A DNA stretch of 64,000 nt, taken from assembly GCA_045047305.1 (NCBI GenBank), contig JASFYO010000010.1, forward strand, positions 1 to 64,000, read 5' to 3'. Shown piece after piece: positions 13,505 to 31,604 of this stretch. The first letter of the stretch is position 1, and every line of letters begins with the position of its first letter. A program made the translations under genes and the position numbers. Source of the stretch: Planctomycetota bacterium. GTDB taxonomy: Bacteria > Planctomycetota > UBA1135. The notes under the pieces were generated by a model, which saw nothing but the letters and a program-made list of their open reading frames with translations, searched no databases and was not told the origin of the DNA.

Positions 13505-14326
13505 CTATCCAGTGGCGCCGGGCAAGGTAGAAAACCAAGCCAGAATCAACAGACAGACAGCCACTGCAATTGCCACGTGAACATTACGCATAGTTGCATG
13601 CTGCAAGGTTGAGTGCATCTTGCGATCCCATGCCGTGGACCCATGATCTACATATTCCTTAAAGGCCAACCCCTGAAATAGCAGGTTCATCGGGAATAGA
13701 CCAAGGCACATACCCTGCACCATAACCATCACAGCTCGACGAAAGGCTTCACCATAGGTTAGTAATCGGTTTTCCTCATGCACCACCCGAATGCGGAAAA
13801 TCCACTTGCCGGGGGTCATCCCCCATTTTGAGAGTGCATAAGACTCAAAAATAGCGAGTACACCGAAAGTGACCAGAGCACTGAAAAGAAGATTCGCTAT
13901 GGTTACCTCAGAGGCGCTTTCTACTGGAACCAGCAAGCTCAACAAAATCATCACTAGGTGGTAATCAATGAGCCGTGCGAGGAAACGGTTCCAGGCCAAA
14001 CGCATACGCGCTGACTGGGCCGGAGTCCGGCTCCCCGAACCGCCACTTATGGTCTCGGCGGCGCTAGCGAAAGGATTAGAGCGCACACTTGCACTCGCGG
14101 TCGAAGGTGCAGCCTTTGGCTGTACAACTGGAACTGGTTCTGGGGACGGGGGCGCGGGGCGGTAAAGCGCTGGCACCTTCTCTGCAGAAGCCCAATCCGA
14201 CATGCCCTTAGACCAGACCTTTATGTCTACCGGGAGGTTCCCACCCAGCAACATGCTGCGCAACTCATCCTCGGCGATAGGCCCCTTCTGTTGGTCCCCG
14301 AGCGCGTAATACCATTCCGCGCTCAT
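13505..14326 (-). CDS. GYF_2 (DUF4339) + RDD family membrane protein
   Basis: N-terminal WYY...QKGP...VWSKGMSDW; RFLARLID, TPGKWIFRIRVV and WDR motifs of RDD. Confidence 0.85.
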   Translation of the reverse strand: MSAEWYYALGDQQKGPIAEDELRSMLLGGNLPVDIKVWSKGMSDWASAEKVPALYRPAPPSPEPVPVVQPKAAPSTASASVRSNPFASAAETISGGSGSRTPAQSARMRLAWNRFLARLIDYHLVMILLSLLVPVESASEVTIANLLFSALVTFGVLAIFESYALSKWGMTPGKWIFRIRVVHEENRLLTYGEAFRRAVMVMVQGMCLGLFPMNLLFQGLAFKEYVDHGSTAWDRKMHSTLQHATMRNVHVAIAVAVCLLILAWFSTLPGATG

Positions 14327-14673
14327 GACTTGGTCGCCTCGTCATACATAGGTTCACAATAGCCAACCACTAGGGTGCGGCCGAGACGCAACGTTGGGGC
14401 GCGTAAATTTCCAGTGGGTCCTAACATGGTCTTCCTTGCTTGCTCCGATACCTTTAGGTCCGAGCTAAGGTATTTTACATACTTTTTACCGCGCCCGATG
14501 AACACTTGATCCACCTTGTCTAGAAGAGCACGGGCGGCGCTTGCCCCTTGAGGCTCTTTGCGCGCGTCGACCATCTGAGAGGCCTCGAAACCGTGTTTCT
14601 GCAGATAACTATCCGCATGGGTGCACGACGTTCAGCTCTTCCGATGCAGGTACCAATCAAGAGTCAAAGCCAT
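14323..14673 (-). CDS. ArsC/Spx-like thioredoxin-fold selenoprotein (Sec at in-frame UGA 14634-14632, UxxC motif), 116 aa
   Basis: Reading upstream of the 83-aa ORF in frame gives MALTLDWYLHRKS-UGA-TSCTHADSYLQKHGFEASQMVDARK...; C-terminal LGPTGNLRAPTLRLGRTLVVGY; SECIS-like hairpin follows the UGA; TACAAT lies 6 nt before the ATG. Confidence 0.85.
14591..14631 (-). promoter_or_regulatory. Putative bacterial SECIS element
   Basis: Directly 3' of the UGA: stem UGCGGAU/AUCUGCA with loop AGUU (G at position 2) starting 22 nt after the UGA, plus lower CGUG/CACG pairing. Confidence 0.7.
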
Positions 14674-14701: not shown

Positions 14702-15577
14702 CTAAGGGTTGGCCTTGCGAACTCTTGCCCAGAATGCGGCAACCAAAGCCCAGGCAGCGGCAGCACAAACTGCGGAAGGGCCATATGGCCAATCTAGCTC
14801 TAAAGACAAGGGCCAAGCTACCAGAACACAACCGATGCCGACACCCAAAACATGCAGTAGGAATTGGTTCATGTTGTGCGCAAGTGACCTTGCCGCCAAC
14901 GGAGGTAAAAACAACAAACCAAAAACCAAAATTGGCCCCACGGTCATGACACCAGCTCCAATGGTGAAACCAATGAGTAGCAACTGCAAAATTTCAACCA
15001 ACTTCACCGGCAAGCCTAAGGAGACCGCTTGGTCGTGATCAAAAGCGGAAACGATAAGGGCTTTACGGAATCCAATGAGGAAAATGAAACACAGCACACT
15101 GGCACTCGACAGCACCATCAGCCCGTGAATGTCTAAGAGTAAGACTTCTCCGCGCATCATCGTTTCAGCAAGGTTATTACCTGCCGGCGCCGAGGTCAGA
15201 AACAAAATGGACAAGGCAGATGCGGTTGCAAAAGCACCGGCCAAAACTGCGCCGGAATCCCGCGGACCTTTTGCCATGGCACCAAATACGGCAAGGGCTA
15301 AACATGCCGAACCAGCCGCGAATGGCAATAGGTAAGACATGGGCGGATGTCCATGATCGAGGAAATAGGCGCTCATGGTGGGAAACCATGGCAACAACAG
15401 AAGACCCAGTGCAATCCCAGCTGCGGCGAACTGCGGTACCGCAATCCCTAAGAAAGCTTCGCGGCGCAAGAACATTAAGGCTCCAATGAGAGGCATGACA
15501 ATGCCAACCACTAGGGAAGCCAGAAAACTCAAGCCAAACAGCTCACGGTAAAGGTCGAAATCTTGAATTAAGTCCAT
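14702..15577 (-). CDS. Zn/Mn ABC transporter permease (ZnuB-like)
   Basis: Multi-TM; RREAFLGIAVPQFAAAG, AFDHDQAVSLGL, VGPILVFGLLFLP. Confidence 0.85.
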   Translation of the reverse strand: MDLIQDFDLYRELFGLSFLASLVVGIVMPLIGALMFLRREAFLGIAVPQFAAAGIALGLLLLPWFPTMSAYFLDHGHPPMSYLLPFAAGSACLALAVFGAMAKGPRDSGAVLAGAFATASALSILFLTSAPAGNNLAETMMRGEVLLLDIHGLMVLSSASVLCFIFLIGFRKALIVSAFDHDQAVSLGLPVKLVEILQLLLIGFTIGAGVMTVGPILVFGLLFLPPLAARSLAHNMNQFLLHVLGVGIGCVLVAWPLSLELDWPYGPSAVCAAAAWALVAAFWARVRKANP

Positions 15578-16248
15578 AATTTCTCCAAGCCCTCGGCGCT
15601 ACACATGATTTGCGGAGGAAGCTCTTCAAGCAAGCCGTTCTTCACCAGGATAGAACGATTCACGTGATTGCGTAAAGCCAAAGGTTGATGGCTCACTAGG
15701 ACAATGGAAGTCCCCACCAGCATTTGTTGCTTCAACAATTCTAAAATGATCGAGGTTGCCCGTGCGTCGACTCCGGAAACCGGTTCATCCAAAAGCAGGA
15801 AATTGGGCTTTAGCACGAGTGAACGAGCGAGCAGGACGCGCTGTTTCTGCCCCCCAGACAAGCGCCCAAAAGCTTGCTTCAGTCTGGCCTCCATAGAAAC
15901 TAAGGCAAGAGCGTGATGTACGCGTTGTTTCCTTTCCTGCGAGTTCAAACGCACCCCTTTACCCCATAGGCCCATTTGGACCACATCTGAAACGGATGCG
16001 GGGAAGCCTGCATCGAGTTGTAGTTGCTGCGGAACGTATCCGAGAATCAGGTCCGAGGAAGCCTCACGCCTTCCTTTGAGTGTTGGCAACACACCCAACA
16101 AACTGCGCACCAGGGTGCTTTTCCCAGCACCATTGGCTCCAGCCAACAACAGGAAATCCCCTTCCTCAATGCTCAGGTTTACATTTTCCAGTACCGCACT
16201 TCCTGTTTGATAGCCAAGGTTCGCATCGACTAACCGTAAACGGCTCAT
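15568..16248 (-). CDS. Zn/Mn ABC transporter ATPase (ZnuC-like)
   Basis: GANGAGKST, GYVPQ, LSGGQKQRVLLAR, LLDEPVSGVD. Confidence 0.9.
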   Translation of the reverse strand: MSRLRLVDANLGYQTGSAVLENVNLSIEEGDFLLLAGANGAGKSTLVRSLLGVLPTLKGRREASSDLILGYVPQQLQLDAGFPASVSDVVQMGLWGKGVRLNSQERKQRVHHALALVSMEARLKQAFGRLSGGQKQRVLLARSLVLKPNFLLLDEPVSGVDARATSIILELLKQQMLVGTSIVLVSHQPLALRNHVNRSILVKNGLLEELPPQIMCSAEGLEKLWT

Positions 16249-17192
16249 GAGGGTTTCTCCCCATTCTCCTGCGCTTCTGGCTTGGGCAAGCCATAAGCCT
16301 GGCGCATTTGCAAAATGAGAAATTCAATGTAATCCAAATACTCGACCTGGTCTTTGCGCAACCCACTTGTAGTAGCCACCTTGACCACGTGCAGGTCATC
16401 CTGCATCAAGCTCCGTAAACGTTGCTCGTTGTACCACGGTTCCATGAGCAGCATGTTCACATGCTGTGCTTGAATCACCTTCTTCACATTCACTAAATGT
16501 TTGGCACTGGGCGATAAGCCGGGTTTCGGCTCAATCTCCGCCGCAACCTCTAAACCATAACGCTTGGTGAAATAGGACCAACTCCGATGGTAAGTCACCA
16601 CAGCCTTCCCCTTTAGGGGGGCCATCCAACCTTGCCATTTCTTAATCCGAGCCTGCGCTTCGGTGTCCCAATCCAAGAATCGTTGTTGGAATTCAGATTT
16701 CCACTGGGGCGCCAGAGCCACCAGTAAATCATATGCGGCGCGGGCCATAATGCGGCCATTCTCGGGATCCAAATTGTAGTGAGGATTTCCACGCGGATGC
16801 AAATCTGCGCCTTGGCCTCGACTCAAAGTCTCCGGGACTTCGAGCGGAGTAATGCGCGTCCCCACATTCATATAACCCACTCCACCTGGGCGTATAGAAT
16901 TCTTGCGCGTCTTCTCCAAAAGAGCAGGCAGAAAAGCGTGCTCGTAGTCTAAACCCATCAAAATGAGTCCATCGGCACGGCTTAACTTAAGCAGTAACGA
17001 TGCTTTGGGAAGAATCGAGTGCGGATCGTTTCCTGGCGGGACCAACACTTGCACATGAACATGGTCGCCCCCGATGGTGGAAACCAGATTCCCTAAATCG
17101 GGAATCGTGGCGACGATTTCAAGACGATCCTGCGCGATGGCCGGAGCGCCACAGAAAAGCAAAAGGAATGTGGTGAGTAGAGCATTTTTCAT
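16245..17192 (-). CDS. Zn/Mn ABC substrate-binding protein (ZnuA/TroA cluster)
   Basis: Signal peptide; DPH, HPRGNPHYNLDP, TYHRSWSY, EPKPG metal-site motifs. Confidence 0.9.
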   Translation of the reverse strand: MKNALLTTFLLLFCGAPAIAQDRLEIVATIPDLGNLVSTIGGDHVHVQVLVPPGNDPHSILPKASLLLKLSRADGLILMGLDYEHAFLPALLEKTRKNSIRPGGVGYMNVGTRITPLEVPETLSRGQGADLHPRGNPHYNLDPENGRIMARAAYDLLVALAPQWKSEFQQRFLDWDTEAQARIKKWQGWMAPLKGKAVVTYHRSWSYFTKRYGLEVAAEIEPKPGLSPSAKHLVNVKKVIQAQHVNMLLMEPWYNEQRLRSLMQDDLHVVKVATTSGLRKDQVEYLDYIEFLILQMRQAYGLPKPEAQENGEKPS

Positions 17193-17194
17193 GA

Positions 17195-18478
17195 CTACCA
17201 GTCCAAAGGATGACTATGACTACCCAGAATGATGTCCCACTGCACTGCAAGAGACCATACTGCTGAGGATCCCACCGCCAGATCTTGTGTTACTTGCGTA
17301 CGCAGGCGATTAAATTCACTGAAGTTATGGGTAACAAAGACACCGCGTTGCCCACCCGCTTGTGCCGAAGAAAACCAGTCGCTACCCACCGTATTGAGTG
17401 GATCCTGCCACCAGGCAGCTTCTACGCCTGCCCCCCAGTAAGGGTTAAACTCGTATTCGTAAAAGCCCCACAGGCCATTTGCATCACGGCTTACTTGATT
17501 CGAAGCTCCGTCGATGGTGTCGCGCTGGTTGCGCCATAACTCCACCGACCAGGTCGATGCTGAGTGGTCAGAGGCATCGACGTCGCGCAAAGTAAGGTCG
17601 ATAGCGAAGGTGGTTTGACCTAGGCCAAATTCTTGATCCACGATGCCATCGGAATTGGTGTCATTCTGATCCACAATCCCGCTACCAGTATGGAAAAAGC
17701 TCAAGCCATACTGGAAGAAACCATTGACGCCATAGTCTTGTTGCGCCGCCACGCGTCCGGTAAAGCCAAACTCCGAAAAGTCATGGTTGTCAATCACGCC
17801 TGAGCCAAAGCTGCTCCCTTGCGTATGCGGTCCTGGTCCAGTTTGAATCGGGTTACTCGCGCCAAAGGAAGATAATACGCCCAAAGACCAACGCACCGGG
17901 ATATCACCCATCCCCGTCCATTGGTTCAATTCAATTCCAGTGCCATTGAGATTGCCACCAAAAAAAGCCGTACGCACACCATCTTCAAACACAAAACTTT
18001 TATCGTGCAGATGGATGGTGTTCCATTTGCCAAAGTCAGCGAGCATTTTTCCAACACGGAGACTCATGTTGGCGGGGAGCTGATCCATGATTAAGGCAGC
18101 TTCTTCTACAGAAAAAATGTCATCTTCGTACGCGATGACGGCGTAAGCCCAACCAAGCGGATCAATCCGACTGGCGAGATCAATTTCCACGCTGCGCATG
18201 TCAAAGCCGTCGACCCCGGCTCCACGTTCCTCGCTAAAGGTAGCTAGGCCATCGAAAATCAACCCCATTGCGGGATTAAAACTAGGGTCGAAGCGCGAGG
18301 TGAATCCGGAACCACCGCCGCCCATGGTCCCAGGGAAAGTGGTGTCGAGCATGCGACTGTTTAAGGTATCTTCGAGGTCATCGCCCTCGGTTTGCGCAAA
18401 AGCGGATTGCACGCAGAAAATCGACAAAAGGAGGGTGGCGCAAATGCCACCAAAGGAATTAGGTAAGGTCAAATCCAT
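17195..18478 (-). CDS. Outer-membrane beta-barrel protein of the type found with Zn ABC operons
   Basis: Signal peptide; FNPAMGLI, FGKWNTIHLHD, SEFNRLRTQ, C-terminal ILGSHSHPLDW; sits just upstream of znuA-like. Confidence 0.72.
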   Translation of the reverse strand: MDLTLPNSFGGICATLLLSIFCVQSAFAQTEGDDLEDTLNSRMLDTTFPGTMGGGGSGFTSRFDPSFNPAMGLIFDGLATFSEERGAGVDGFDMRSVEIDLASRIDPLGWAYAVIAYEDDIFSVEEAALIMDQLPANMSLRVGKMLADFGKWNTIHLHDKSFVFEDGVRTAFFGGNLNGTGIELNQWTGMGDIPVRWSLGVLSSFGASNPIQTGPGPHTQGSSFGSGVIDNHDFSEFGFTGRVAAQQDYGVNGFFQYGLSFFHTGSGIVDQNDTNSDGIVDQEFGLGQTTFAIDLTLRDVDASDHSASTWSVELWRNQRDTIDGASNQVSRDANGLWGFYEYEFNPYWGAGVEAAWWQDPLNTVGSDWFSSAQAGGQRGVFVTHNFSEFNRLRTQVTQDLAVGSSAVWSLAVQWDIILGSHSHPLDW

Positions 18479-18502
18479 GAGTAGGGAGTGGGTAAACGGA
18501 AG

Positions 18503-18527
18503 CTCAATCGACCCGAAGTCGATTGAG
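18503..18527 (-). promoter_or_regulatory. Stable intercistronic hairpin between leader ORF and receptor gene
   Basis: Perfect 10-bp inverted repeat CTCAATCGAC/GTCGATTGAG with a UUCG-containing loop on the - strand; no clean U-tract. Confidence 0.65.
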
Positions 18528-18538
18528 GAATTAAATCG

Positions 18539-18805
18539 TTACCTTGACCGCGGTGGTGCTCGTCCGCAGTAGTTCTTCACCACCGTAGACTCGGGCATCT
18601 GGGTCTGCATGATGCCCCTTACCTGGATGCGCCAGAAAAACATGAGTAAAATGACCCATCCACTGACACTCATTAAAACCACCCCATTTCCGCAAAGCGC
18701 AAAGGGGCCACAGTCCTGGCCCGCTTGATGCAACGGAGCATGCATCAAGCCGGCAAGCAAAAGCAAGCCGAGCAGCAGCCAACCGAGGCGTTGCACCATG
18801 GACAT
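18539..18805 (-). CDS. DUF2946/CruR-like leader protein with C-terminal RAPP arrest motif
   Basis: N-terminal hydrophobic segment, HAPLH...C-x5-C, C-terminal GRAPPRSR; TACACT 6 nt before the ATG; heads a metal-uptake operon. Confidence 0.65.
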   Translation of the reverse strand: MSMVQRLGWLLLGLLLLAGLMHAPLHQAGQDCGPFALCGNGVVLMSVSGWVILLMFFWRIQVRGIMQTQMPESTVVKNYCGRAPPRSR

Positions 18806-18845
18806 GTGTGTAGTGTAGTCGCCGATTCGTTAGATTGTCCAGTAC

Positions 18846-19655
18846 ATGTTGCGCATCCATACCCTCGCCAGCGGTTCCTCTGGGAATTGCGCCCTGATTG
18901 AGGCTGGGACTGGAGTCAACCGCGTGGTGCTGTGCTTGGATTCAGGAATCGCCCAACGTACGGCACGTGGATTCGCCGAGGCAGTCGGTCTGTCCATGAC
19001 CTCGGTTGATGCCGTTTTGCTCACCCACCGGCATAGCGACCACTCGGCGAATATTGTGCCGACGGCCTCGCGCGCCCAAGCTCCACTCTATGCCCACTCG
19101 GAAAGCCTCGGCACCAATCAACGCACCAGCATGGCCGAGATTACTCGCCGCAATGTCGAGGTGCGGAACTTCGTGGATCGTGGTTTCTTTAAAATCGGGC
19201 CTTTAGTGGTGACCCCAATCCAACTCCCCCACGACGCCGACCCTACCTTTGGATTCGTGTTTGAAACCGCCACTTCCAAAGCTGGTTTCTTCACCGATCT
19301 TGGACGCCCGGAAATCCTCATGCAACCAGGCCTGCTCGACGGCATGGAAACCTTGATACTGGAATCGAATCACGACGTAGAGATGTTAGCCAAAGGCCCT
19401 TATCCCCGCGCATTGCGTCAACGGGTTGGTGGAGATCTAGGGCACCTTTCCAATGCGCAAACTTTTGAAATCTTGGCTTCATCCGCACCAAAGACTTTGC
19501 AGCGCCTGGTGTTGGCACATCTATCGTTAAAGAATAACACCCAGAAGATGGCCCTAGAGAATGCACACGCAGCCCTACTGCAGCGTGGACTCAAGGATGT
19601 TCAATTGCACGTTGCACCTGCGCGAGGCCCCTTAGCGCGTAAGCTGCCCATGTAA
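18846..19655 (+). CDS. MBL-fold metallo-hydrolase (YycJ/WalJ-like)
   Basis: LASGSSGNC, THRHSDH, PHD, TDLG, LESNHD, GHLSN, LAHLS..NN. Confidence 0.88.
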   Translation: MLRIHTLASGSSGNCALIEAGTGVNRVVLCLDSGIAQRTARGFAEAVGLSMTSVDAVLLTHRHSDHSANIVPTASRAQAPLYAHSESLGTNQRTSMAEITRRNVEVRNFVDRGFFKIGPLVVTPIQLPHDADPTFGFVFETATSKAGFFTDLGRPEILMQPGLLDGMETLILESNHDVEMLAKGPYPRALRQRVGGDLGHLSNAQTFEILASSAPKTLQRLVLAHLSLKNNTQKMALENAHAALLQRGLKDVQLHVAPARGPLARKLPM

Positions 19656-25539: not shown

Positions 25540-27720
25540 ATGCTCCTCCTAACCGCACTGCTTTCGCCTCTCTTCTTCCCACAAGAGCCAGCTCCTCAGG
25601 AAGCGGAATCCACCGAGGTGCAAACTTCGGAAACGCAACAAAAGCCTTCACTCTATTCCGCCAAGGAAATTGTTGTCATTGCAACTAGGCTTGCAGAGGA
25701 TCTTTTTGAGGTCCCTCGTTCGGTCAACATCATTGACGCACAGGACATAAAGGAGCGCACACCACGGACTGCAGCAGAAGCCTTACGCCAGCAGCCTGGA
25801 ATCTGGATCCAACGTACTGGGCATTCTGGTGGAGCCCCCATTATTCGCGGTTTTATGGGCAAACGCGTTATCTATATGTTCGATGGCATCCGTCGCAACA
25901 CGGCCAGTCTTTTCAACGGCCCAAACGGTTTCTTGGGCACGGTCGACGCCCTCGACATTGACCGGATTGAGGTTCTACGCGGCCCCGGCTCGGTCCTTTA
26001 CGGTTCCGATGCGATTGGTGGTGTCATCAACGTGGTCACCAATGAAAAACCTCTCTACACCGATGGTGGCATTTCAACCGGTGGACGCTTCCATACTCGG
26101 TTTGCAAGCGCCGACCATGAAGCCTCCGCCCGCACCGAGGCTTATATTGCTGGCCAGGACGCTTACGCTTTTTTAGGCGCAACACGTCGCAGTATTGCAG
26201 ACGTAACTTCCGGGCGCGGAGGTGGCCTTCAAGACCCCAGCTCTTGGCATGAGACCAACTTTGACATCGAAGGTGGATATCGCTTGAGTGACAAACAAGA
26301 CTTACAGATTTTCGCGCAAAGCTATGACCGCCCAGATGGCACTCGCTACGACAAGCCGACACGAGTCACAAGTAACAAACGGAACCTCTATGGCCTACGT
26401 TATCGTGCCACTGATTTGGCCTTCACCGATCAGGCCACGATGACTGCGTATTACCATCGACAGGAAAAACTAAACGATGATCCAACCCGTGATTCACTCT
26501 CTCTAGACACATCCATGGGGCTCGATCTCCAACTCGAAAACGCCTTAGGCAATGGTGGTTCTCGTCTGGTTTACGGCCTTTCCGCGATTGCTGACGACGT
26601 TCAGAAGAGTAATCCACAAGGCGGTACACGCGACCCCGAAGCCTCTTGGTCGGACGTGGCAGCCTTCGCCCTCACCGAGATGTACGTCACTGATACAGTT
26701 CGTATCGACGTTGGTGTCCGAGTCGACCGCACGCGCTTGAAGTTTGACAACCTCCCACTCAATGAACTTGACACCCTAGTGCAAGATGCCATCAGCAATG
26801 GTGAACTTTCTCTTTCTGATCTCGCGCTTGAGAATACGAATACTGCACTAACCGGAGGTATTGGTCTTAGCTGGTTCCTCAACGATGACTTAGCAGTTTT
26901 CACCAACTTAAGCCGAGCATTTCGCGCGCCCAATAAGAGCGACCTATTCAGCTTTGGCCCCTTCACCAATGGCTTTAACGTTCCATCCCCCAAGGTCGAT
27001 CCTGAGTCAGCCTGGAGTTACGAACTTGGCATGCGTGGACAGTCTCATGACTCTGCATGGAGCGCGACTGGCTTTTACACCGAACTCGACAATGCCATCG
27101 TTTCGGAGCCAGGCACTTTTAATGGCGACTCCTTCATTGACCTCGATGGAAACGGAACACTGGATCCGGGCGAAGAAGTTTATGTGAAAAGGAACTCCAC
27201 CGACAAGGTTACGGTCCAGGGTGTTGAACTCCAAGGCACCCAATACCTCCCGACTCGCTGGACCCGCTCCTTGTTGAGCCATGGTGTGGTTTCGGTCTAC
27301 GGAAATGCCTCTTGGATTGACGGCAAGAATCAAGCTACCGATGGCCCGCCTGACCGTCTCTTCCCGACCAATGCACTACTCGGTGTGCGTTGGGAAAACT
27401 CCCGCAATCCACGGGAACGAACCACTTGGGTTAGTTTTGAATCCTGGATGGTCGATAGCTTTGACGACATTGCGGCTTCCCGTGCTGGCGATCCGGCCTT
27501 CAAAAATGACCCGCAGGACAGAGGTTCCGGCCTTCTGGCTCCGGGCCCCCGGGTTCCAGGCTTCTCCGTCTTCACCTTGAGGGGTGGAGTCCAACTCAAC
27601 CAGCGAGTTTCCTTGACACTCGTTGTCGAAAACCTCGGCGACCGCCTTTACCGCGTAAAAGACTCCCGGATCGACGCACCGGGGATTAACTTCGTGGCGG
27701 CCGTGGATATCCTTCTCTAA
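25540..27720 (+). CDS. TonB-dependent receptor (plug + barrel)
   Basis: EIVVIATR TonB-box region, IDRIEVLRGPGSVLYGSDAIGGVINVVT plug signature, AFRAP, ENLGDRLY...PGINF. Confidence 0.93.
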   Translation: MLLLTALLSPLFFPQEPAPQEAESTEVQTSETQQKPSLYSAKEIVVIATRLAEDLFEVPRSVNIIDAQDIKERTPRTAAEALRQQPGIWIQRTGHSGGAPIIRGFMGKRVIYMFDGIRRNTASLFNGPNGFLGTVDALDIDRIEVLRGPGSVLYGSDAIGGVINVVTNEKPLYTDGGISTGGRFHTRFASADHEASARTEAYIAGQDAYAFLGATRRSIADVTSGRGGGLQDPSSWHETNFDIEGGYRLSDKQDLQIFAQSYDRPDGTRYDKPTRVTSNKRNLYGLRYRATDLAFTDQATMTAYYHRQEKLNDDPTRDSLSLDTSMGLDLQLENALGNGGSRLVYGLSAIADDVQKSNPQGGTRDPEASWSDVAAFALTEMYVTDTVRIDVGVRVDRTRLKFDNLPLNELDTLVQDAISNGELSLSDLALENTNTALTGGIGLSWFLNDDLAVFTNLSRAFRAPNKSDLFSFGPFTNGFNVPSPKVDPESAWSYELGMRGQSHDSAWSATGFYTELDNAIVSEPGTFNGDSFIDLDGNGTLDPGEEVYVKRNSTDKVTVQGVELQGTQYLPTRWTRSLLSHGVVSVYGNASWIDGKNQATDGPPDRLFPTNALLGVRWENSRNPRERTTWVSFESWMVDSFDDIAASRAGDPAFKNDPQDRGSGLLAPGPRVPGFSVFTLRGGVQLNQRVSLTLVVENLGDRLYRVKDSRIDAPGINFVAAVDILL

Positions 27721-30700
27721 TGAGAAAGATGGATTTTGCGGGTAGGGTACTTGGGTTGTTCCTACCCGCATTTTTTTTCGGATTGCTCGCCTCTACCTTG
27801 GCGGCACAGGAACCAGATTCTCCATTAACCACCTCTGACGAAAGCCAGCACCATGCTGTTTTTCTCGGAGTCTGGGACCGTGCCCAACCTTTATTGGATC
27901 GAGTGGGCCCGAAGGCAGGTTTCAAGGTCGAATTCCATAACGACCACGACTTAGGACAGCTCAATGTCGAATCTCTCGCCAAGGCAGATCTCATCTTGGT
28001 GCTCAATTTGCGCCCCGAAGAAGCCTCTGCACTGACTCAAGCCTTAAGGGAGCTACGCCGCGCAAGGCCGCAAATACCGATTCTTGCCTTAGACCAACGC
28101 GATTCGCAAAAAGGTTTAGAGAGCAAGTCCTTATTGTCGCGCGACGCCACCTTGCAATCTTATTGGAGGAATGGTGGCAGTGAAAACTATCGGCGCATGT
28201 TTAGCTACCTGGGCTTCGCCTATCTAAACGACGGCCAAAAACCACTCCCACCAGCAGTCATCCCAGAGAGCGGAATTTGGCATCCTGCTGCGAGCGATTT
28301 ATTCACGACTGCGGAATCCTTCCTCGCGTGGCAAAAGAGCCGCCCGAATGCCCCGCAAGGCCCTCACATCACCCTTGCCACGCAACGAAGCTTTGTATTA
28401 CTAGAAGATATTAAAGTGCACAAGGCTATGGTGGAAGAACTTGAATCGCGTGGCCTTCAAGTTGCGGTCATGTTCTCTGCCGACCAGAAAACTTTTATGG
28501 ACATGCTGCGGCAATGGAAACCGCAAGTGTTATTAGACGATGGCCACGCATCCCCCATGTTGCTCGCCGGAGCTAAGGAACTTGACATTCCGCAAATGAA
28601 AGTCATTTCCATGCTTCGATCCACCCTTGAAGAATGGCGTGCATCGCCCCTTGGCCTGGAACCGGGCGATGTCGGTTTGCATCTCATTAGCCAAGAGGTC
28701 TATGGCATTGCAGATCCCCAAATCGTAGGTGGAATCGAAGCACACCTTAGTGGATACCGAATCCATCAACCGGAAAAGGAACGCATTGCTCACATGGTCG
28801 ACCGCGTTCTTGCATGGCTCGCTTTACGCAGTAAGTCCAATCAAAAAAAACGCATTGCGGTTATTTATTATCACAAATCTCTAGGCGGCGGCGACTTAAC
28901 CCGTGGCAGTCCCAGTGGCGCATTCCTCGATGGACCAGAAAGCCTTTACCGTTTCCTTCTCGCCATGCGCGATGCTGGATACAAGGTGGACCCGATGCCT
29001 AAGAACGCCGAGGAACTCCTCCAGTGGATGCGCCAAAGGGGACGCAACGTGGGCGTTTGGGCAGATGGCGACAAAAAGAAGCTGGTCGAAGAAGGTGATC
29101 CAATCCTTTGGCCGATGGCTTCCTACCGCAAATGGTTCCAAAAGCTACCCGCCAAAACCCAAGAAGAAGTCCTTACCGCTCATGGCTCCCCGCCTGGCGT
29201 GCAAATGGCGTGGCGTGAAAACCAAAAGGACTATTTTATTATCCCACGCATAGATCTGGGTGGAGTCGTTTTACTTCCGCAGCCGGCAAGAGGGCCTGAG
29301 AATGACCCTAAACTCCTGCATGCACGCGATATTCCTCCACCCCATCAGTACCTGGCCACCTATGCGTGGCTGCAAAACGACGCCAAAGTCGACGCTCTCA
29401 TTCACTTTGGCACCCACGGTTCCGAATTGCTTCTTCCCCTGCGTGGCTCCGGCTTGGGCCCCACCGATTTTGGTGACCGCATTTTGGGTCGTCTTCCCAA
29501 TATCACTCCCTGGATTTTGGACAATGTTGCGGAAGCTACATTAGCCAAACGTCGCGCCTATGCGGTCCTTGTCGATCACCAGGTTCCTGCTTATGAAGCC
29601 TCTGGCCTGTCGCCCGAGCTCCTCCTTTTGCAGGGAGATCTGCAAAAATTTGGCGACATGGAAGATGGCATGGTGCGCAATCGCTACCGCGACAGCATCC
29701 TAGAAACTGCAGCTAAGAATGGTCTTCCCGTCCCTGACCATGCGGAAGATTTCACGGCTGAATCCGCGCGCGAACTCCTAGAGGAAGTTGAAAATATTCG
29801 TGAGCGCGTGGCCCCCATGCACCTTCACATTCTTGGCCAGCCAGCGCAAAGAGATCGCCTCATCGCCATGGCCACAACCATGCTGGGGACCGGTTTCCGG
29901 CAGGATTATGCGAGTCGCGAAGAAGCCGAAGATGCCGTACGCCATGCCATAGACTCGAATGAGGAATTTCCTGCGGAGAGTTGGCAAGGAAAGGCGCAAA
30001 TCTACCAGCAACGTCTCTCCGACACCGATGATGAAATTCTTAATGTCCTGCACGCACTCGATGGTTCCTTTGTGCCACCCGGTCCGGGCAATGACCCACT
30101 GCGTAATCCCTCTGCGGTCCCCACGGGGCGCAATCTTTACGCCCTAAACCCAGAGGAAATCCCCACCCCTACGGCTTGGGCAATCGGGGTCGAACTGGGT
30201 GACAAATTGCTCGAACGCGGCCCTCTCAAAAAGGTTGCCTTCGATCTCAACGCCTTTGAAACCATGCGCGACTATGGCGTTATGGAGGCTGAAATCCTCT
30301 ACCTCATGGGAGTGCGGCCTATTTGGGATGAAAACGGTCTAGCCGCAGAAGTTGAGGTGATTCCGCACGAAGAATTGGGCCGCCCACGGGTCGACGTATT
30401 CATTGCCATTAGTGGCGCGATGCGCGACAACTTCCCTTCCCGTGTGCGCTTGTTTGATCAGGCCGCACGTATGGTTGCCGCTCTAGACGAGCCAGAAAAC
30501 GAGGTGCGCATAGCAACCCTAAAACGGGAGCAAGTGCTCCTTGGTGAAGGTTTCGCGCCGATACAAGCCAAGCGTTTATCCGCTGCCCGCGTATTTGGGC
30601 AAAAGCCTGGCGAATATGGAACGCGCATTCTATACATGGTTCCGAAATCTGGTTCCTGGGATTCCAATGAAGAAATTGCCAGTGTTTACATGGACACGAT

Positions 30701-31604
30701 GTCGCATGTCTATACCGAAGGAATTTGGGGTGAAAAAGTGGAGGGCCTTTACCGCCATGCCATAGCCGGTTCTGATTTAGTGCTACGGAATTGGGCGTCG
30801 AATATGATGAGTCCACTATCGAATCATCATGTTTACGAATATGCCGGTGGACTTAGCCTTGCGCTAACCTCGGTGAATGGCACACAACCCGAATTGCTCA
30901 TTAACGACGTACGCGAAAACGCCAAGTTACGTGAATTTGATTCGGTCATGCGCGAAGAATTCCATGCCACCCTCCTGAATGCCAAATGGGTCAAAGGGAT
31001 GAAGGAAAACGGCTATGCTGGAGCCGGGCAAATGGCCGAATTGGTCAAGAACAGTTTTGGCTGGGAAACGGTACGTGATGGCTCGGTTGGGCAAGCCATG
31101 TGGGATGGCATCGACGAGGTCTACCTCCAAGATCGTTATCAACTTGACCTTGAAACCTGGTTTCAAGATCAAAATCCGCATGCCTTCCAAGAAATCGCTG
31201 CGACCATGCTTGAGGCCAACCGTAAAGAATATTGGGAGGCCAGCGAAGAACGTCTGCAGCAGATCGCAAAAGACTATGCACAATCCGTTGCTGATTATCG
31301 ATTGTCAGGAGGCATTGTCGATGGCGGGAATAAACACCTCCAAGAAGCCGTCCAAAGGTTTCTCAATGCTGCTGGCGAGTTAGAACTCCTTGATGCCTAT
31401 CAAGCTTCCATTCAAGAGAGTGAAGCCTCGAATGGCGAAAACCGTGTCAAGGGCATGCAGCTTGCAAAAGCGCCCACGGAAGAGCCCAAGGCCCAACCCG
31501 CCCAAACTTCTGGCGCAAGGGATTGGCTCTTCCCGCTCATCGCTGGAGCTGGAGCTATTGTGGTGTTCCTTGTAGGCTTCACCCGTAGATACCGTAAGAG
31601 TTAA
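27720..31604 (+). CDS. CobN/ChlH-family chelatase-like protein, exported and C-terminally anchored (HmuS/BtuS-like)
   Basis: HFGTHG, AKRR, LHILG, PGPGNDPLRNP..PTGRNLY, RPRVDV, WVKGMKENGYAGA; N-terminal signal peptide; C-terminal TM with basic tail. Confidence 0.9.
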   Translation: MRKMDFAGRVLGLFLPAFFFGLLASTLAAQEPDSPLTTSDESQHHAVFLGVWDRAQPLLDRVGPKAGFKVEFHNDHDLGQLNVESLAKADLILVLNLRPEEASALTQALRELRRARPQIPILALDQRDSQKGLESKSLLSRDATLQSYWRNGGSENYRRMFSYLGFAYLNDGQKPLPPAVIPESGIWHPAASDLFTTAESFLAWQKSRPNAPQGPHITLATQRSFVLLEDIKVHKAMVEELESRGLQVAVMFSADQKTFMDMLRQWKPQVLLDDGHASPMLLAGAKELDIPQMKVISMLRSTLEEWRASPLGLEPGDVGLHLISQEVYGIADPQIVGGIEAHLSGYRIHQPEKERIAHMVDRVLAWLALRSKSNQKKRIAVIYYHKSLGGGDLTRGSPSGAFLDGPESLYRFLLAMRDAGYKVDPMPKNAEELLQWMRQRGRNVGVWADGDKKKLVEEGDPILWPMASYRKWFQKLPAKTQEEVLTAHGSPPGVQMAWRENQKDYFIIPRIDLGGVVLLPQPARGPENDPKLLHARDIPPPHQYLATYAWLQNDAKVDALIHFGTHGSELLLPLRGSGLGPTDFGDRILGRLPNITPWILDNVAEATLAKRRAYAVLVDHQVPAYEASGLSPELLLLQGDLQKFGDMEDGMVRNRYRDSILETAAKNGLPVPDHAEDFTAESARELLEEVENIRERVAPMHLHILGQPAQRDRLIAMATTMLGTGFRQDYASREEAEDAVRHAIDSNEEFPAESWQGKAQIYQQRLSDTDDEILNVLHALDGSFVPPGPGNDPLRNPSAVPTGRNLYALNPEEIPTPTAWAIGVELGDKLLERGPLKKVAFDLNAFETMRDYGVMEAEILYLMGVRPIWDENGLAAEVEVIPHEELGRPRVDVFIAISGAMRDNFPSRVRLFDQAARMVAALDEPENEVRIATLKREQVLLGEGFAPIQAKRLSAARVFGQKPGEYGTRILYMVPKSGSWDSNEEIASVYMDTMSHVYTEGIWGEKVEGLYRHAIAGSDLVLRNWASNMMSPLSNHHVYEYAGGLSLALTSVNGTQPELLINDVRENAKLREFDSVMREEFHATLLNAKWVKGMKENGYAGAGQMAELVKNSFGWETVRDGSVGQAMWDGIDEVYLQDRYQLDLETWFQDQNPHAFQEIAATMLEANRKEYWEASEERLQQIAKDYAQSVADYRLSGGIVDGGNKHLQEAVQRFLNAAGELELLDAYQASIQESEASNGENRVKGMQLAKAPTEEPKAQPAQTSGARDWLFPLIAGAGAIVVFLVGFTRRYRKS

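Follow-up and report, generated by a model that had tools for sequence, protein, structure and literature searches.

Arrest peptides such as SecM, ApdA and ApdP monitor protein export and, to our knowledge, lack a conserved cluster of His and Cys residues. In the RAPP peptides ApdA and ApdP, the first Pro occupies the P site at arrest (PMC10951233). Two metal-sensing leaders have been tested, CruR (Bp2923, DUF2946/PF11162) from Bordetella pertussis and CutF from Rhodobacter capsulatus, and both sense copper and respond in opposite directions (PMC9426467, PMC9973294). According to the accessible parts of the respective reports, CruR is a leader of 145 aa with a CxxC motif, whose spacing between the Cys pair and RAPP tolerates a change of ±2 but not of +5 (PMC9426467), and its arrest was placed in vitro with the first Pro in the P site (PMC12992588). 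CutF-like proteins are recognised by a length below 150 aa, a PP in the last 15 residues and a same-strand neighbour within 1000 nt (PMC9973294). As far as these sources go, metal-sensing arrest peptides have been tested for copper only (PMC9426467, PMC12992588). A zinc-responsive arrest leader with a test was not found in the literature searched, which covered few subscription papers.

The window analysed here, i.e. the whole stretch of 64,000 nucleotides, belongs to a genome of 2.83 Mb that is 87.7% complete (G000) and whose placement in the Planctomycetota agrees with the source names on the homologues. The first-pass annotation had described an 88-aa ORF as the first gene ahead of an outer-membrane barrel and znuA/C/B-like genes. 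Gene order and profile matches agree with this, and together with the promoter they identify the leader gene as the first gene of a metal-homeostasis operon:

18539..18805, minus strand: leader gene, 88 aa, CruR/CutF-like, C-x5-C two-helix variant (ORF translation and homologues)
17195..18478, minus strand: predicted OprP-like porin of 427 aa with 16 strands and invariant His residues (AF2 model and structural match)
16245..17192, minus strand: ZnuA-family binding protein with His58, His132, His138 and His202 (PF01297, E 9e-45)
15568..16248, minus strand: ABC ATPase, ZnuC/AztA-like (Pfam/NCBIfam profile search)
14702..15577, minus strand: ABC-3 permease, ZnuB/AztB-like (Pfam/NCBIfam profile search)
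18846..19655, plus strand: divergent gene with a metallo-beta-lactamase fold, the neighbour across the 40-bp gap (PF12706, E 5e-16)

The leader stop is separated from the porin gene by 60 nt, and the junctions between porin, ZnuA-like protein, ATPase and permease are 2 nt apart or overlapping. With porin, binding protein, ATPase and permease all present in a planctomycete, a complete import operon in another phylum, as claimed earlier, is indeed found. The divergent gap of 40 bp was likewise confirmed; judging from the sequence, the metallo-beta-lactamase-fold gene beyond it is a neighbour and only a candidate member of the system.

Translation of the minus strand gives the 88-aa ORF as first read, with a hydrophobic N-terminus, HAPLH (residues 22-26), C32-x5-C38, a second hydrophobic stretch and the terminal GRAPPRSR. 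Its parts are located as follows:

18743..18787, minus strand: first hydrophobic segment, approximately residues 7-21 (hydropathy; AF2 helix 3-26)
18692..18742, minus strand: putative metal site His22-x3-His26 ... Cys32-x5-Cys38, invariant in 60/60 homologues
18632..18685, minus strand: second hydrophobic segment, approximately residues 41-58, typical of the C-x5-C lineage (hydropathy; AF2 helix 40-68)
18551..18562, minus strand: RAPP codons, residues 82-85, the predicted arrest site, with R[AG]PP in 59/60 homologues

The leader gene is real and conserved. A profile of its C-x5-C form retrieved 60 proteins, the window's leader included, in whose alignment His22, Pro24, His26, Cys32, Cys38, Arg82 and Pro84 are invariant and the C-terminal ends comprise 45 RAPP and 14 RGPP. 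Conservation of His, Cys and RAPP upstream of orthologous barrels, a check named by the first-pass annotation, was borne out, with no loss at orthologous positions among the homologues aligned. The distance from Cys38 to RAPP/RGPP is 43 in the window's leader and 42-44 in 59/59 C-x5-C leaders; the last Cys and the Arg lie 42-46 apart in 23/23 full-length leaders at order level and 41-47 apart in 46 CxxC leaders. Despite this fixed distance, the linker between Cys and RAPP is poorly conserved in the alignment of 60 homologues, and synonymous variation is seen in the His, Cys, Arg and Pro codons of 12 close orthologues. Strong matches to the C-x5-C profile occur in 12/251 genomes of the order, belonging to three genera of one family. 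The barrel is present in 35/41 related genomes, and an ORF ending in R[AG]PP lies upstream of it in 26/30 loci (3 of the 26 cut by contig ends) and is absent at L010, L026, L028 and L029; the genomes compared are kin, so that none of these counts are independent. As a chance control, 12 RAPP-like and control motifs were found 448 times within 10 residues of a stop in the six frames of the 2.83-Mb genome, and only the window's leader has a Cys pair 41-47 residues upstream, by a criterion that was chosen after its ORF was known.

The AF2 model of the leader consists of two helices, 3-26 and 40-68, at modest confidence (pLDDT 72.6, pTM 0.37). The first hydrophobic segment is probably an uncleaved signal anchor; the invariant Pro24 after M-H-A would speak against cleavage of the signal.

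Compared with CruR, the leader is likewise encoded by the first gene of a metal import operon and has an export signal, a Cys pair and a C-terminal RAPP at a similar distance (43 here, 45 in CruR), and metal would be expected to relieve the stall and close import as described there (PMC9426467). However, it is 88 instead of 145 aa long, contains a second hydrophobic helix and carries C-x5-C and two invariant His where CruR has CxxC; the operon encodes a plug-less porin and ZnuACB in place of a TonB receptor and PepSY, and a start-codon stem on a leaderless mRNA is predicted in place of Rho termination (PMC9426467). The non-canonical ligand spacing noticed earlier is therefore genuine, as C-x5-C is found in the leader and in 59/59 close homologues as opposed to CxxC elsewhere. 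The proposed HMM comparison to DUF2946 gave a negative result: unlike CruR, the leader scores nothing against PF11162, and the genome contains no PF11162 match either. Only the C-terminal RAPP, the spacing of approximately 45, the N-terminal hydrophobic helix and the operon position agree with DUF2946, whereas the profile score and the CxxC do not. PF11162 is matched weakly by 10/23 aligned leaders (best E 4.3e-4), and DUF2946 members have been noted in Planctomycetes (PMC9426467). Profile searches against Pfam and NCBIfam gave no match for the leader. In the ESM Atlas, its top clusters are without names (0.92-0.93), and clusters of DUF2946, DUF6769 and DUF2607 follow at 0.87 as leads only; DUF2607 is the first gene of the Zur-regulated zrg operon of Vibrio (PMC9817125).

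With CutF, the leader shares its nature as an exported, Cys-containing leader, the approximately 45 residues from metal motif to stall site and, as predicted, a stall that opens a stem over the next initiation site (PMC9973294; bioRxiv 10.1101/2025.02.05.636593). CutF differs in its CxxxC motif and PPP end, and copper induces its stall, which turns on a detoxifying oxidase, whereas an importer implies the opposite direction (PMC9973294; bioRxiv 10.1101/2025.02.05.636593). By the rules for CutF-like proteins, the leader has 88 aa, PP at 84-85 and a 60-nt gap to its neighbour. The RAP/P arrest register and the exported N-terminus are also shared with SecM, ApdA and ApdP (PMC10951233). By analogy with these systems, the 88-aa gene is very probably an arrest leader. 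The source-data rows of a 2025 paper, as far as accessible, contain His/Cys-rich RAPP uORFs before outer-membrane genes of 400-500 aa, one of them annotated as DUF2946, which by way of the Vibrio homologue described below are probably the same operon type. However, these are table rows only, the word 'zinc' is absent from the main text in its accessible part, and no C-x5-C two-helix form was seen among those rows.

The porin family was found in 166/301 Planctomycetota genomes, and 62 further porin loci were examined, 22 of them tool-supplied and 40 chosen among the higher-scoring matches. A leader ending in RAPP, RGPP or RSPP with Cys 40-48 residues upstream was present at 47/62 loci; at a further ten the leader ends differently (RPPP, RDPP, KQSPP, longer tails) or its Cys is displaced, and at 5/62 no leader was seen. 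Leaders of the phylum-level set carry CxxC in 46/47 cases, and the 23 full-length leaders at order level divide into 10 with C-x5-C and 13 with CxxC at the same position. On these sequences, C-x5-C is a local variant within the planctomycete leaders. The second hydrophobic segment (mean hydropathy > 1.6 over 17 aa) occurs in 54/59 C-x5-C leaders as opposed to 2/46 CxxC leaders; L040 and L044 keep H/H/C/C and lack the hydrophobic second helix. In the porin tree, the C-x5-C rows sit among CxxC rows. A single origin of C-x5-C is unsupported, as its 12 rows fall into two supported groups at a fork that this tree leaves unresolved. The variant ends IRPPP (L122, L124, L126, L128), RDPP (L123, L148) and KQSPP (L140) occupy the same position, and a leader of Sulfurovum (L195) ends in HAPP; such endings are natural material for tests of the arrest motif.

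Porin loci without a recognised leader are L026, L052, L058, L113, L142, L155, L158 and L164, most of which adjoin ZnuA. A paralogous porin without ZnuA neighbour or leader (L170-L177) exists in most relatives and was not found in G000. No credible leader was found at the 8 paralogous barrels without a ZnuA neighbour, the single script match being a GC-rich frame without a signal segment. Since 47/62 porin loci have a leader and none of these 8 paralogues has a credible one, the leader accompanies the importer. In one related genome (G004, locus L010, read in L038, which was treated as identical DNA), codons 1-9 of the leader, still behind their promoter, are fused in frame to the porin, reading MSMPQCLGL where L002 has MSMPQRLGL. 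The ABC genes are absent from this locus, ZnuA and leader were not found in the genome (87% complete), and its porin lies on a long branch inside the C-x5-C group of the porin tree. This is consistent with a secondary loss of the leader and the ABC genes together in one event.

The region between the leader and the divergent gene contains two putative promoter elements:

18812..18841, minus strand: sigma-70-type promoter TGGACA-18-TACACT, with the end of its -10 box 6 nt upstream of the leader ATG
18831..18836, plus strand: likely back-to-back -10 box TAGATT of the divergent metallo-beta-lactamase-fold gene, 9 nt before its ATG (sequence)

Boxes similar to TAGATT were seen in several orthologues. 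From the short distance of 6 nt between the leader's -10 box and ATG, a leaderless mRNA is predicted. TANNNT stands 5-9 nt before the leader start at 19/26 family-level loci and 11/12 C-x5-C loci; many of these starts were first chosen with the -10 box in view, and those of the C-x5-C group also align at the same residue. Across the phylum the signal is weaker, at 17/47 leaders in a permissive test. In G000 as a whole, TANNNT lies 5-9 nt upstream of 272/1487 first ATGs of long ORFs (approximately 18%) as opposed to 277/12369 internal ATGs (2%), its distance peaks at 6 nt (8.1% vs 0.3%), and the use of Shine-Dalgarno sequences is low (13% vs 7%). Leaderless translation is thus predicted to be widespread in this planctomycete lineage.

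The lack of an obvious Zur palindrome was corroborated at the promoter by two negative tests, a box scan and a palindrome test. No Zur-type box was found between 18,400 and 19,500 with a proteobacterial pattern that may not be the host's, and with up to 3 mismatches this pattern matched 9 times in the whole window vs 12 expected. The best palindrome at the leader promoter has 5/9 pairs, below the random mode of 6. In the 87.7% complete G000, one Fur-family gene was found, which is closer to Fur than to Zur models and below all cut-offs, and neither DtxR/MntR nor Nramp was found; 7/9 genomes of the genus contain one Fur-family match each. In an assembly of this completeness, a Zur gene may have been missed.

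For the porin, the AF2 model shows 16 strands and no plug (pLDDT 84.4), and its best structural match is OprP (2o4v; Z 27.0, rmsd 3.4, 312 aligned), with Foldseek returning general porins. No match was obtained in Pfam/NCBIfam or in a PDB sequence search with the porin profile. A TonB-dependent receptor, which is 22-stranded and has a plug, was rejected for this gene in view of the 16 strands and the lack of a Pfam plug or TonB match. Thus, a barrel gene does head the importer as stated in the first-pass annotation, but its identity as a receptor gives way to that of a plug-less porin. In the binding protein, His58 is conserved in 36/36 rows, and the 35 rows that extend over the other three positions all have His132, His138 and His202. 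Its best relatives with a solved structure are ZnuA proteins, and it scores below every NCBIfam cut-off, the best being AztC with 92.6 of 350 bits. Mn-type cluster A-I binding proteins (PsaA/MntC) use a His-His-Glu-Asp ligand set. A Mn-type protein was rejected here, as the third ligand is His in 35/35 rows and no conserved Asp lies near the fourth position. Of the Zn/Mn-type import proposed earlier, the zinc part is in keeping with these His ligands, whereas manganese lacks the conserved acidic ligand in the binding protein.

The best evidence for zinc is a homologous operon in Vibrio campbellii (L194). Its porin is homologous to the one described here (profile E 2e-46; 21% identity and E 4e-9 in direct comparison), its binding protein shares the His motifs (29%), and it also contains a permease. 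The operon differs in its two perfect TGTTATnnnATAACA boxes of the Zur type, and no RAPP ORF precedes it. Species and gene order lead us to infer that L194 is the omr-znuA2-znuB2 cluster. This cluster is listed in the Zur regulon and described in three Vibrio species including V. campbellii, and zinc limitation induces it 283- to 1034-fold in V. parahaemolyticus (PMC9817125). The source name 'zinc-regulated TonB-dependent receptor' is absent from the homologues, and the link to zinc regulation rests on the Vibrio locus. The invariant His/Cys site makes it quite likely that the leader senses a metal, and the sensed metal is probably zinc.

Folding of the region from RAPP to the porin start revealed a recurrent long-range stem between the last leader codons with the stop and the region before and around the porin AUG, which in the window consists of:

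18537..18549, minus strand: 5' arm, last leader codons and stop, under the stalled ribosome; pairs with 18498-18491 and 18472-18467 (pair probabilities 0.33-0.94, computed folding)
18503..18527, minus strand: inner 11-bp hairpin of the intergenic region, terminator-like with a weak U tail (folding)
18467..18498, minus strand: 3' arms enclosing the porin start codon (18478), which has no Shine-Dalgarno sequence (folding)

At 24 loci, a 22-nt segment from the first Pro codon was paired with the porin start regions; L044 and L053 were excluded for an unclear porin start, L059 for a cut leader and L038, L052 and L058 for lack of a leader. Cognate duplexes have a mean of -15.4 kcal/mol vs -8.9 kcal/mol for non-cognate ones, and the cognate pairing is the best of its row in 11/24 loci. 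In a sliding window, pairing peaks sharply at offsets 0 and +6 from the Pro-Pro codons. This peak recurs on 42 independent loci (the 47 minus 5 with distant or missing porin starts), with values of -3.5 and -3.3 at offsets 0 and +6 as opposed to -2.0 to +0.4 at other offsets, the porin start being taken as the first in-frame ATG, which is doubtful for some. With the stalled footprint masked, opening the start region costs a mean of 6.7 instead of 12.0 kcal/mol, as opposed to 11.6 kcal/mol for a pause 10 codons earlier, and the gain is at most 1 kcal/mol in three of the 24 loci. The window's own stem is weak when taken alone (row rank 7/24, shuffle p 0.15), with an opening cost of 8.7 when free, 5.7 with the early pause and 3.5 when stalled. 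A stem over the initiation region of the next gene that is opened by the stalled ribosome, as in CutF, is thus found computationally, and the window by itself shows it weakly. The stem is opened equally well by a ribosome that has reached the stop codon (mean 6.7), so that the switch must rest on dwell time. An Rfam scan of 18300-19000 gave no match. On the computed pairing, the leader rather likely acts through a translational stem.

The overall reading is that the gene probably encodes a zinc-responsive arrest leader. In its full form, to which we assign a probability of about 0.5, the RAPP leader would stall when zinc is scarce and open the stem at the porin start, and zinc binding would release the stall and let the stem close. 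Transcription from the -10 box 6 nt upstream would yield a leaderless mRNA, and the first helix would anchor the nascent chain with His22, His26, Cys32 and Cys38 on the periplasmic side. To judge from CruR, ApdA and ApdP, arrest would occur with the first Pro in the P site. According to the folding and the cognate pairing across genomes, the stalled ribosome would cover the 5' arm, the 3' arm being the porin initiation region, and translation of the porin and of the three abutting or overlapping ABC genes would follow. More speculatively, zinc might close the His2Cys2 loop, tip helix 2 into the membrane and pull the chain free. When Pro84 occupies the P site at arrest, 43-44 residues separate the start of helix 2 from the peptidyl-transferase centre, and transmembrane helices start to pull at approximately 45 residues (PMC7886326). 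Since an importer should close once metal is abundant, and since stalling is what opens the start site, metal should lift the stall, and there is good reason to expect that it switches import off. By analogy, the direction of CruR would be combined with the output of CutF. The whole chain, in which a zinc arrest switch replaces Zur and comprises a leaderless mRNA, a two-helix hairpin, release of the RAPP stall by zinc-driven insertion of helix 2 and re-closing of the stem, is doubtful in all its parts together. If true, it would be the first zinc-sensing ribosome-arrest switch, with metal binding turned into force by membrane-helix insertion.

Several other explanations have to be weighed against this reading. 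The same switch could answer to another soft metal (copper, nickel, cobalt) or to several, as CruR and CutF respond to copper via Cys pairs (PMC9426467, PMC9973294, bioRxiv 10.1101/2025.02.05.636593), some CutF-like proteins precede Ni/Co transporters (PMC9973294) and the binding protein remains below every NCBIfam cut-off; with a Zur-boxed, zinc-induced homologous operon in Vibrio, ligands that are all His and ZnuA proteins as the best relatives of known structure, this is unlikely. It is somewhat less likely still that stalling governs transcription termination, through Rho or the intergenic hairpin, and not the initiation of porin translation. Conserved pairing joins the codons after the Pro codons to the porin start region, the U tail of the hairpin is weak and the spacer of 60 nt is short compared with 162 nt in cruR, although the intergenic region is C-rich (20 C vs 9 G), its 11-bp hairpin scores as terminator-like, matches to the RNA-binding domain of Rho are present in the genome and CruR itself acts by Rho-dependent termination (PMC9426467). 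Both mechanisms can coexist, because blocked initiation invites Rho.

A SecM/MifM-like monitor of membrane insertion or of the periplasmic disulfide, pulled by helix 2 or by a Cys32-Cys38 disulfide without any metal signal, would account for the lineage-specific second helix (54/59 vs 2/46) and its start near the pulling distance of approximately 45 residues (PMC7886326), and a disulfide role has been proposed for CutF (bioRxiv 10.1101/2025.02.05.636593). We consider it improbable, as invariance extends to the two His no less than to the two Cys, the downstream genes encode a metal importer and not secretion machinery, and L040 and L044 retain H/H/C/C without the hydrophobic helix. Constitutive stalling with no other effect than an open porin start, or a small membrane protein that works in trans, both without a signal, would leave the fixed Cys-to-RAPP distance over a poorly conserved linker without purpose, and the G004 fusion suggests that the porin can be expressed without a leader; RAPP/RGPP does arrest in many sequence contexts (PMC12992588), and conditional release is a prediction from analogy, yet this explanation is very improbable. 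That the ORF arose by chance, for which its lack of Pfam/NCBIfam matches could be cited, is refuted by the invariant residues of 59 homologues, by codons that vary synonymously and by a promoter of its own, which leaves it a negligible probability.

The general arrangement is already widespread and listed in published source data, as far as these are accessible. In the reading of a zinc-responsive arrest leader, the operon would add a zinc-type case with built-in controls, the same importer being Zur-controlled in Vibrio and leader-controlled here. One lineage appears to have exchanged CxxC for C-x5-C and gained a second helix at a force-generating distance, and one genome that apparently dropped leader and transporter together is a natural control. 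With 88 aa and 60 nt, peptide and spacer are of a size that suits direct toeprint and force-profile work.

Other genes in the window and the genome were also noted. A second CutF-like leader, Cys-rich and ending in RGPPRPLYLSFQRFLI, lies outside the window (G000:C82:26241-26657, minus strand) and precedes a TolC/CusB/CusA-like efflux operon with a gap of 63 nt, the gene identities being read from the sequence. Within the window, 25540-31604 on the plus strand contains a TonB-dependent receptor (profile match) followed by a 1294-aa ORF that resembles CobN/chelatase proteins. After the permease, 14323-14673 on the minus strand encodes a selenoprotein of the known ArsC family (NF041106, 113.6 bits, cut-off 85) with an in-frame TGA at codon 14 (U-x-x-C); SelA is encoded in the genome, and a TACAAT box of its own lies 6 nt upstream of the selenoprotein gene's ATG.
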